DNA of 64,000 nt, taken from an uncultured Eubacteriales bacterium. GTDB lineage: Bacteria > Bacillota > Clostridia > TANB77 > CAG-508. Both the position numbers and the translations under genes were made by a program. The notes below the pieces were generated by a model, which saw nothing but the letters and a program-made list of their open reading frames with translations, searched no databases and was not told where the DNA came from. Position 1 is the stretch's first letter. Each line of letters begins with the position of its first letter. Location of the stretch: NCBI GenBank assembly GCA_948468315.1, contig CAOKHL010000004.1, positions 19,314 through 83,313 on the forward strand, in the 5' to 3' direction. Positions 52,799 to 52,885 of the stretch are shown in pieces.

Positions 52799-52885
52799 GT
52801 GCCAGTTCCCTGCCCAGTGCCGGTTCTTTTTTAGGGAATTGCTAATTCCCTAAAAAAGAACCGGCACTGGGCAGGGAACTGGCAC
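52799..52885. repeat. 87-bp perfect palindrome (two 42-nt arms, 3-nt loop), GC-rich
   Basis: gtgccagttccctgcccagtgccggttcttttttagggaatt-gct-aattccctaaaaaagaaccggcactgggcagggaactggcac. Confidence 0.9.

Follow-up and report, generated by a model that had tools for sequence, protein, structure and literature searches.

Why should a long and perfect inverted repeat stand between hpt and uvrC, two genes that lie almost end to end in many related species, and where did it come from? The question is raised by a 64-kb stretch of DNA (64,000 nt in all, referred to here as the window) from an uncultured gut Clostridia lineage, in which an 87-bp perfect palindrome occupies positions 52799-52885. We read this palindrome as a head-to-head doublet of a repeat unit, a REPIN-like core.

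Structure and reality of the palindrome

The left arm, GTGCCAGTTCCCTGCCCAGTGCCGGTTCTTTTTTAGGGAATT (52799-52840, + strand), holds two tandem copies of a core (GTGCCAGTTC + GTGCCGGTTC) and is followed by a 3-nt loop (52841-52843), GCT on the + strand and AGC on the gene strand, which has the same orientation in all assemblies that read through the element. The right arm (52844-52885, +) is the exact reverse complement of the left; a 12-nt core, CCGGTTCTTTTT, at 52820-52831 (+) has its mirror copy at 52853-52864 (-), and the 33-nt unit of the element is TTCCCTGCCCAGTGCCGGTTCTTTTTTAGGGAA. Beyond the perfect core, imperfect pairing extends over 52786-52898 (55-nt arms, 95% complementarity), the outer stem being formed on the uvrC side by TTAACAAGGAAAA (52786-52798, gene strand), which abuts the uvrC Shine-Dalgarno sequence, and on the hpt side by its pairing partner TTTTCCCTATTGA (52886-52898, gene strand). 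The 42-nt arms without mismatches and the 3-nt loop described in the first-pass annotation are confirmed, and the sequence recurs base for base in several independent assemblies. The GC contrast that it drew is likewise real, with a corrected figure: the palindrome is 52.9% GC, instead of about 55%, and the 64-kb window 27.5%.

No second inverted repeat of such size was found within the 64-kb window, where the next-longest has 24-nt arms with 88% complementarity and every further hairpin whose stem reaches 13 nt is AT-rich and terminator-like. When the 28-nt arm core was searched through the 64 kb with 3 mismatches allowed, it matched the two arms only, and none of 100 shuffles gave a match. 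The predicted RNA fold of the palindrome region has an energy of -97 kcal/mol (z = -16 relative to shuffles).

An assembly or sequencing artefact such as a fold-back chimera, which might be suspected from the many metagenome contigs that end inside the palindrome and the error bursts that follow it, is practically out of the question, since at least six independent assemblies (L002, L003, L005, L011-L013) read through the identical 87 nt from one flanking gene to the other, the palindrome is not an inverted copy of its own flanking sequence, and homologous counterparts exist in relatives. The element is real and is fixed in the window's species. The contigs that end within the palindrome or show error bursts just past it (L006-L010, L014-L017) reflect the effect of a perfect palindrome on short-read assembly; in L006, L007, L014 and L016 the contig ends at the palindrome, with bursts of substitutions in its last 30-40 nt. 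The element thus breaks or mis-joins short-read metagenome contigs of this species, and MAG quality is affected.

The window holds one copy. An exact scan for the arm core in 185,579 species genomes returned no match, nor did a scan of viral contigs, and blastn against plasmids and phages returned nothing; two matches in JGI metagenomes were rejected as chance, both lying on soil contigs of 61-67% GC. These null scans of genomes, metagenomes, viruses, plasmids and phages argue against copies outside the species and against a vector or synthetic origin. In sample ERZ14865205, one contig (L004, 2695-2765 and downstream) runs from hpt into the palindrome and leaves the right arm after GGGCAGGGA towards a Zn-dependent phospholipase-C-like gene, and uvrC starts a separate contig, L016. 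Such a junction may come from another copy of the element, from rearrangement at the palindrome or from a mis-join; a search for a second copy by way of the neighbouring PLPC gene yielded a sole contig, which stops 17 nt before that gene.

The hpt-uvrC site and transcription through it

The closest species representatives of the window's organism share 82-88% Hpt identity with it, and the Hpt and UvrC proteins of the window are present on many metagenome contigs. Comparison of relatives for presence and absence of the element, which the first-pass annotation had proposed, revealed several states of the site. It is empty in L018-L023, L029-L033 and L036, with 11-15 nt from the hpt stop to the uvrC ATG; the spacer in the window is 129 nt. 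It is filled in L028 and in L035/L027/L066 by a different GC-rich palindrome built on a shared base, TTTTTTCTCATTGGGG...CCCCAATGAGAAA, the tops on this base being unrelated (GGGACAGACCC... in L028, GGGTCGTTTC... in L035). L026 (96% UvrC identity), whose contig begins inside the element, shows the right-hand part of yet another palindrome of this type, and in L065 the site holds a decayed version. The imperfect outer stem of the window (TTTTCCCTATTGA / TTAACAAGGAAAA) resembles the shared base, its hpt side recalling the TTTTTTCTCATTGGGG base in L028, L035 and L066. An identical element in all relatives, with no copies elsewhere, had been named, along with a transcript 3' end exactly there, as the pattern that would speak for a terminator role only; it is not the pattern that the relatives display. 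Because hpt and uvrC are 11-15 nt apart in many sister species, the palindrome is an insertion, and comparison of the loci shows it placed in the spacer of what is, in those species, a tight operon. No target-site duplication is recognisable at the window insertion.

In the window, hpt (170 aa, PF00156; 52904-53416, - strand) ends with a TAG stop 18 nt before the perfect palindrome, and uvrC (595 aa, GIY-YIG and UvrC domains; 50987-52774, - strand) begins with an ATG 24 nt after it, preceded by a Shine-Dalgarno sequence, AGGAG (52781-52785), directly 3' of the outer stem. Along the transcript the order runs hpt stop, 18 nt, palindrome, 24 nt, uvrC ATG. The two genes are co-directional, and the junction is not convergent as the first-pass annotation had it. 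The bidirectional terminator suggested there for this junction also has to be abandoned: the palindrome flanks, TTAACAAGG and TCAATAGGG, provide no T-run after the stem on either strand, a consensus scan of 52300-53900 on both strands found no terminator-like site, and uvrC needs read-through. The same type of scan placed a good promoter-like site upstream of hpt and no credible promoter between the hairpin and uvrC; lacking a plausible promoter, uvrC can be transcribed only across the hairpin. The element shares a GC-rich intergenic stem with Rho-independent bidirectional terminators and differs from them in the missing T-run, the co-directional genes and the dependence of the downstream gene on read-through; an intrinsic (Rho-independent) terminator was rejected on the ground that the GC-rich stem has no adjoining U-tract. 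An element carrying a promoter was considered and likewise rejected. True bidirectional terminators in the window, of the kind typical for this genome, such as those at 49640-49683 and 55649-55699, have AT-rich arms of 21-22 nt flanked by A- and T-runs.

The need for read-through leads to the alternative that the palindrome is a locally selected, non-mobile RNA hairpin, kept, whatever its origin, for its function in uncoupling or tuning hpt and uvrC as a processing site, exonuclease barrier, attenuator or roadblock. The extreme predicted stability of the fold and the want of a credible uvrC promoter downstream of it are in keeping with such a role, and the fact that several relatives keep a hairpin at the site with a wholly different stem sequence could reflect selection for structure. 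Against this, many sister species do without it, their spacers being 11-15 nt; there is no U-tract and no terminator-like site; and no Rfam family reaches threshold at the palindrome, where a permissive scan yielded, on both strands, nothing beyond generic hairpins of miRNA type that fell far short of gathering thresholds (the glmS ribozyme at 53566-53718 is the only Rfam match at threshold in the window). The same repeat core is moreover found at unrelated intergenic sites and flanking a transposase gene, and we consider selection as a purely local hairpin unlikely.

A repeat family and a Y1 transposase in sister genomes

A hairpin survey of the relatives' loci identified near-perfect GC-rich palindromes at other intergenic sites, all built on a common core such as GGACCGGTTCTTTTTG, the window counterpart of which is GTGCCGGTTCTTTTTT. 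Such doublets lie at L031 1428-1512 (38-nt arms), L029 1454-1520, L036 1382-1436, L029 5820-5859 and L018 2291-2334; sister genomes have 3-4 repeat sites within about 12 kb, and in L035 two loci carry near-identical elements about 75 nt long. Each window arm carries two tandem cores, GTGCCAGTTC + GTGCCGGTTCTTTTTT, and the 12-mer CCGGTTCTTTTT of the sister-species units is found unchanged in the second. Classical REP units are imperfect palindromes of 20-40 nt with GTAG or CGTC at the foot; here a unit taken alone shows no folding advantage over shuffled sequence (z -0.2 and -0.45) and lacks the tag, its head being ATTGAG or ATTGGG. When a profile built from sister-species units only was run against the 64 kb, the two window arms ranked first, with E 0.92 for the whole window, which by our own rescaling to an 87-nt target becomes about 6e-4 and is supportive only as a targeted test; the match is too short to count as independent proof of a family link. 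Against the L026 element at the hpt-uvrC site, the same profile gave E 0.015.

In L031 a 257-aa ORF (2920-3693) is preceded by two GGACCGGTTCTTTTTG units and followed by two inverted copies. This layout of units, gene and inverted units recurs in L029, L034, L060, L062, L067 and L077-L080, with unit variants that are GGACCGGTTCTTTTTG in L029 and L034 (as in L031), GGGTCGGTTCTTTTTGG in L060, GGACCGGGTCTTTTTGG in L062, AAATTGGGACCGGGTCTTTTTTT in L067 and TCTCATTTGGTGACGGGGAATAA in L077-L080. The encoded protein, of 255-257 aa, matches Pfam Y1_Tnp, with an invariant HUH motif (H60, H62) and an invariant Y119-x3-N123-P124. In NCBIfam it scores best with the REP-associated tyrosine transposase (REP_Tyr_transpos; E 9.6e-17, 61 bits, below the 80-bit equivalog cutoff), as against 16 bits for IS200. 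Searches of PDB sequences with the transposase and its profile gave no matches; the AF2 model (pLDDT 82.7) has as its top fold match PDB 4ER8 (E 3e-6, TM 0.70), a structure of the REP-associated transposase of E. coli in complex with a REP hairpin, ahead of IS608 TnpA and ISDra2. Comparison of the sister genomes shows a family that is tied to a transposase gene and scattered through intergenic DNA, and the window element is assigned to it by its position, its core and its architecture. The sequence link between the window arms and the units that flank this transposase gene is itself short.

In lineages as distant as 61% protein identity, the transposase gene lies between the Met-gamma-lyase gene and glmS. 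Judged from gene order, this fixed syntenic locus matches what is known of vertically inherited single-copy RAYTs (PMC5581495, PMC3337134). One sub-lineage has a related Y1 transposase, P0147 (64% identity), at another fixed locus, ispG/recD2. In L067 the P0147 gene is flanked by three upstream and four inverted downstream copies of AAATTGGGACCGGGTCTTTTTTT (1340-1500 and 2268-2440), and the recD2 gene calls beside the P0147 gene appear split (352 aa and a further ORF).

These data bear on the alternative that the palindrome is a MITE derived from an ordinary multi-copy IS200/IS605 element (PATE-like) and not from a domesticated single-copy RAYT/TIRYT. The associated protein does fall in the Y1_Tnp superfamily, the transposases of IS608, ISDra2 and IS200 are also significant fold matches, and many of the transposase-bearing contigs are short, as is usual for repeats; HUH/Y1 enzymes, hairpin DNA substrates and the lack of a recognisable target-site duplication are common to IS200/IS605 elements, their miniature derivatives and the system described here. 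However, both family and fold assignments favour the REP-associated branch, and the protein has the class-2 Y-x3-NP signature (PMC6006769). The gene occupies one syntenic position in species with 61-97% identity, or else the one other fixed locus of P0147, in place of scattered identical copies, and its flanks are multiple repeat units and not one left and one right end. An ordinary IS200/IS605 derivative is for these reasons decidedly improbable.

Still less can be said for a protein-binding or recombination site, also among the roles suggested in the first-pass annotation, serving a dimeric regulator or a site-specific recombinase or resolvase. The dyad symmetry is perfect and the sister-species cores contain the palindromic hexamer ACCGGT, but operators and recombinase core sites are much shorter than 87 bp, close relatives do not share the inner sequence at the hpt-uvrC site and no recombinase gene is adjacent, so that this reading is very improbable.

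Neither the window nor the syntenic site has the Y1 transposase gene, and the latter is occupied by an NTPase gene. Look-ups of RAYT homologues, made in search of an enzyme from the window's own species, returned only proteins of other species with their own repeat variants; the cognate transposase of the window's species may lie elsewhere or be lost. In L035 (3695-3746; about 3075-3140 in L066), a 52-nt perfect doublet with 26-nt arms and no loop replaces the transposase gene and is nearly identical to the hpt-uvrC element of the same genome, which suggests loss of the transposase gene with the flanking repeats left joined head to head.

A probable REPIN-like doublet in a Gram-positive lineage

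We conclude that the palindrome is probably a REPIN-like doublet from a RAYT group 1 / TIRYT-type system, a repeat that forms a hairpin and is non-autonomous. The proposal in the first-pass annotation of a transposon- or MITE-like foldback or IS200-type hairpin was essentially right: the element is absent in many relatives, and its core is shared with repeats that flank a Y1/HUH gene. The element consists of two inverted copies of a unit of about 40 nt, each with two tandem cores; given two tandem cores per arm, the whole can be written as two units, loop and two inverted units, and this layout corresponds to that of the transposase locus minus the gene.

On this reading the palindrome belongs to a known class of element, extended here to an unstudied lineage. 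A published REPIN is an 89-bp almost perfect hairpin that is mobilised in trans by RAYTs (PMC3337134). In common with the GI REPIN of P. fluorescens SBW25 and the BIME/TnpA-REP system of E. coli (PMC3116915, PMC3337134), the element consists of two inverted short repeats forming a hairpin of about 90 bp (89 in SBW25, 87 here), its location is extragenic, T/A runs inside the doublet recall the published 'AA-TT' configuration, and, in the sister species, a transposase gene at a single locus has inverted repeat flanks, each transposase lineage having its own repeat variant. There are also differences: a single unit forms no convincing palindrome here and has an ATTGG-like head in place of a GTAG/CGTC tag, the loop is 3 nt where the REPIN spacer is tens of nt, and the host is of a 27% GC Clostridia lineage where that of REPINs is a proteobacterium.

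Single units that are unconvincing hairpins, the lack of GTAG/CGTC tags and a long transposase with a helical C-terminal extension together indicate the TIRtron/TIRYT branch (Di Nocera et al., 2013; PMC3733652). The inverted flanking repeats of TIRtrons can form moderately abundant families as dimers or clusters (PMC3733652), and the repeats described here are similarly poor hairpins alone and also occur as dimers and clusters elsewhere. The Y1 protein resembles TIRYTs in its greater length (255-257 aa) and in a helical C-terminal part of about 115 aa that is predicted by the AF2 model. In TIRYTs a C-terminal HTH (Bac_DnaA_C, HTH_23, HTH_28) is expected; here it is only weakly detectable, by matches to HTH_26 and HTH_28 with E 0.07-0.14. 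The GGGGWSAS motif, often present in TIRYT flanks, is exact in L028 only (GGGGACAG); most units have GGGACCGG or GGGGTCGG instead, at best seven of the eight positions agree, in GGGGTCGG/GGGGACGG units, and the motif is absent from the window's unit. The TIRYT branch corresponds to TnpA-Y1 subclass 2.1 (Quentin et al., 2018; PMC6006769) and to RAYT group 1, which has been reported also in Clostridia (Bertels et al., 2017; PMC5581495). Beside subclass 2.1 genes, REP-like sequences were not seen by Quentin et al. (PMC6006769), whereas the flanks described here are multi-unit and REPtron-like.

For IS200/IS605 elements and for TnpA-REP of E. coli, movement of single-stranded hairpin DNA at replication forks is established. 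By extension, the transposase of the family would place the element, and later remodel it, through single-stranded hairpin DNA at replication forks and without target duplication. As a by-product, the hpt-uvrC mRNA would carry a perfect hairpin of 42-46 bp directly 5' of the uvrC ribosome-binding site, where RNase III might cleave it, or it might hold off 3' exonucleases and protect the hpt 3' end, or damp the translation of uvrC. Correia/NEMIS elements of Neisseria are long inverted repeats located between co-transcribed genes, and their long RNA hairpins are RNase III substrates. The comparison with these and other co-transcribed MITEs would be one of functional analogy, an inserted long inverted repeat giving a long perfect RNA hairpin in each case; Correia elements differ in having TA target duplications and are not known to be linked to a Y1 transposase, and no sequence relationship is known. 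A hairpin of such stability before the ribosome-binding site of uvrC may alter the expression of this DNA-repair gene relative to sister species.

To our knowledge, REPIN/RAYT systems have been studied almost entirely in Proteobacteria, and this picture is widened by a GC-rich hairpin repeat family that goes with a Y1 transposase at a syntenic locus in uncultured, very AT-rich Clostridia of the gut. A single orthologous site with presence, absence and replacement states provides material on the origin and turnover of such elements, and of greater interest is the repeated replacement that the hairpin top seems to undergo there. Among species whose UvrC is 91-96% identical to that of the window's species, the conserved base TTTTTTCTCATTGG carries at least three GC-rich tops that cannot be aligned with one another. 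This raises the possibility, which we put forward tentatively and regard as rather doubtful, that the hpt-uvrC junction acts as a hotspot, the upper part of a resident hairpin being rewritten time and again and the base kept. If so, rewriting would imply either nested insertion of a doublet into an older loop or hairpin-templated conversion by a RAYT group 1 / TIRYT enzyme, a member of the transposase subclass with which, in a published survey, REP-like sequences were not associated. The site would then offer a natural series in which REPIN-like elements of a Gram-positive lineage could be followed as they arise and are replaced, and a further step on the same reading would be co-option of the new 42-bp hairpin to uncouple uvrC from hpt expression.

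The Met-gamma-lyase/glmS neighbourhood has features of its own. At the convergent junction of these two genes in L028, from the closest species representative, lies a long perfect palindrome (3664-3742; 39-nt arms, 1-nt loop, 29% GC) with a sequence unrelated to the GC-rich family. In the window, glmS (53796-55647, + strand) has a 1-nt insertion (C) near 54940 relative to relatives, causing a frameshift, and is split into ORFs of 433/460 aa and 160 aa, compared with 616-618 aa in relatives. The same split gene calls are found in all assemblies of the species, so that this is a real frameshift or a pseudogene, and the glmS ribozyme upstream of the frameshifted gene is intact (88 bits).
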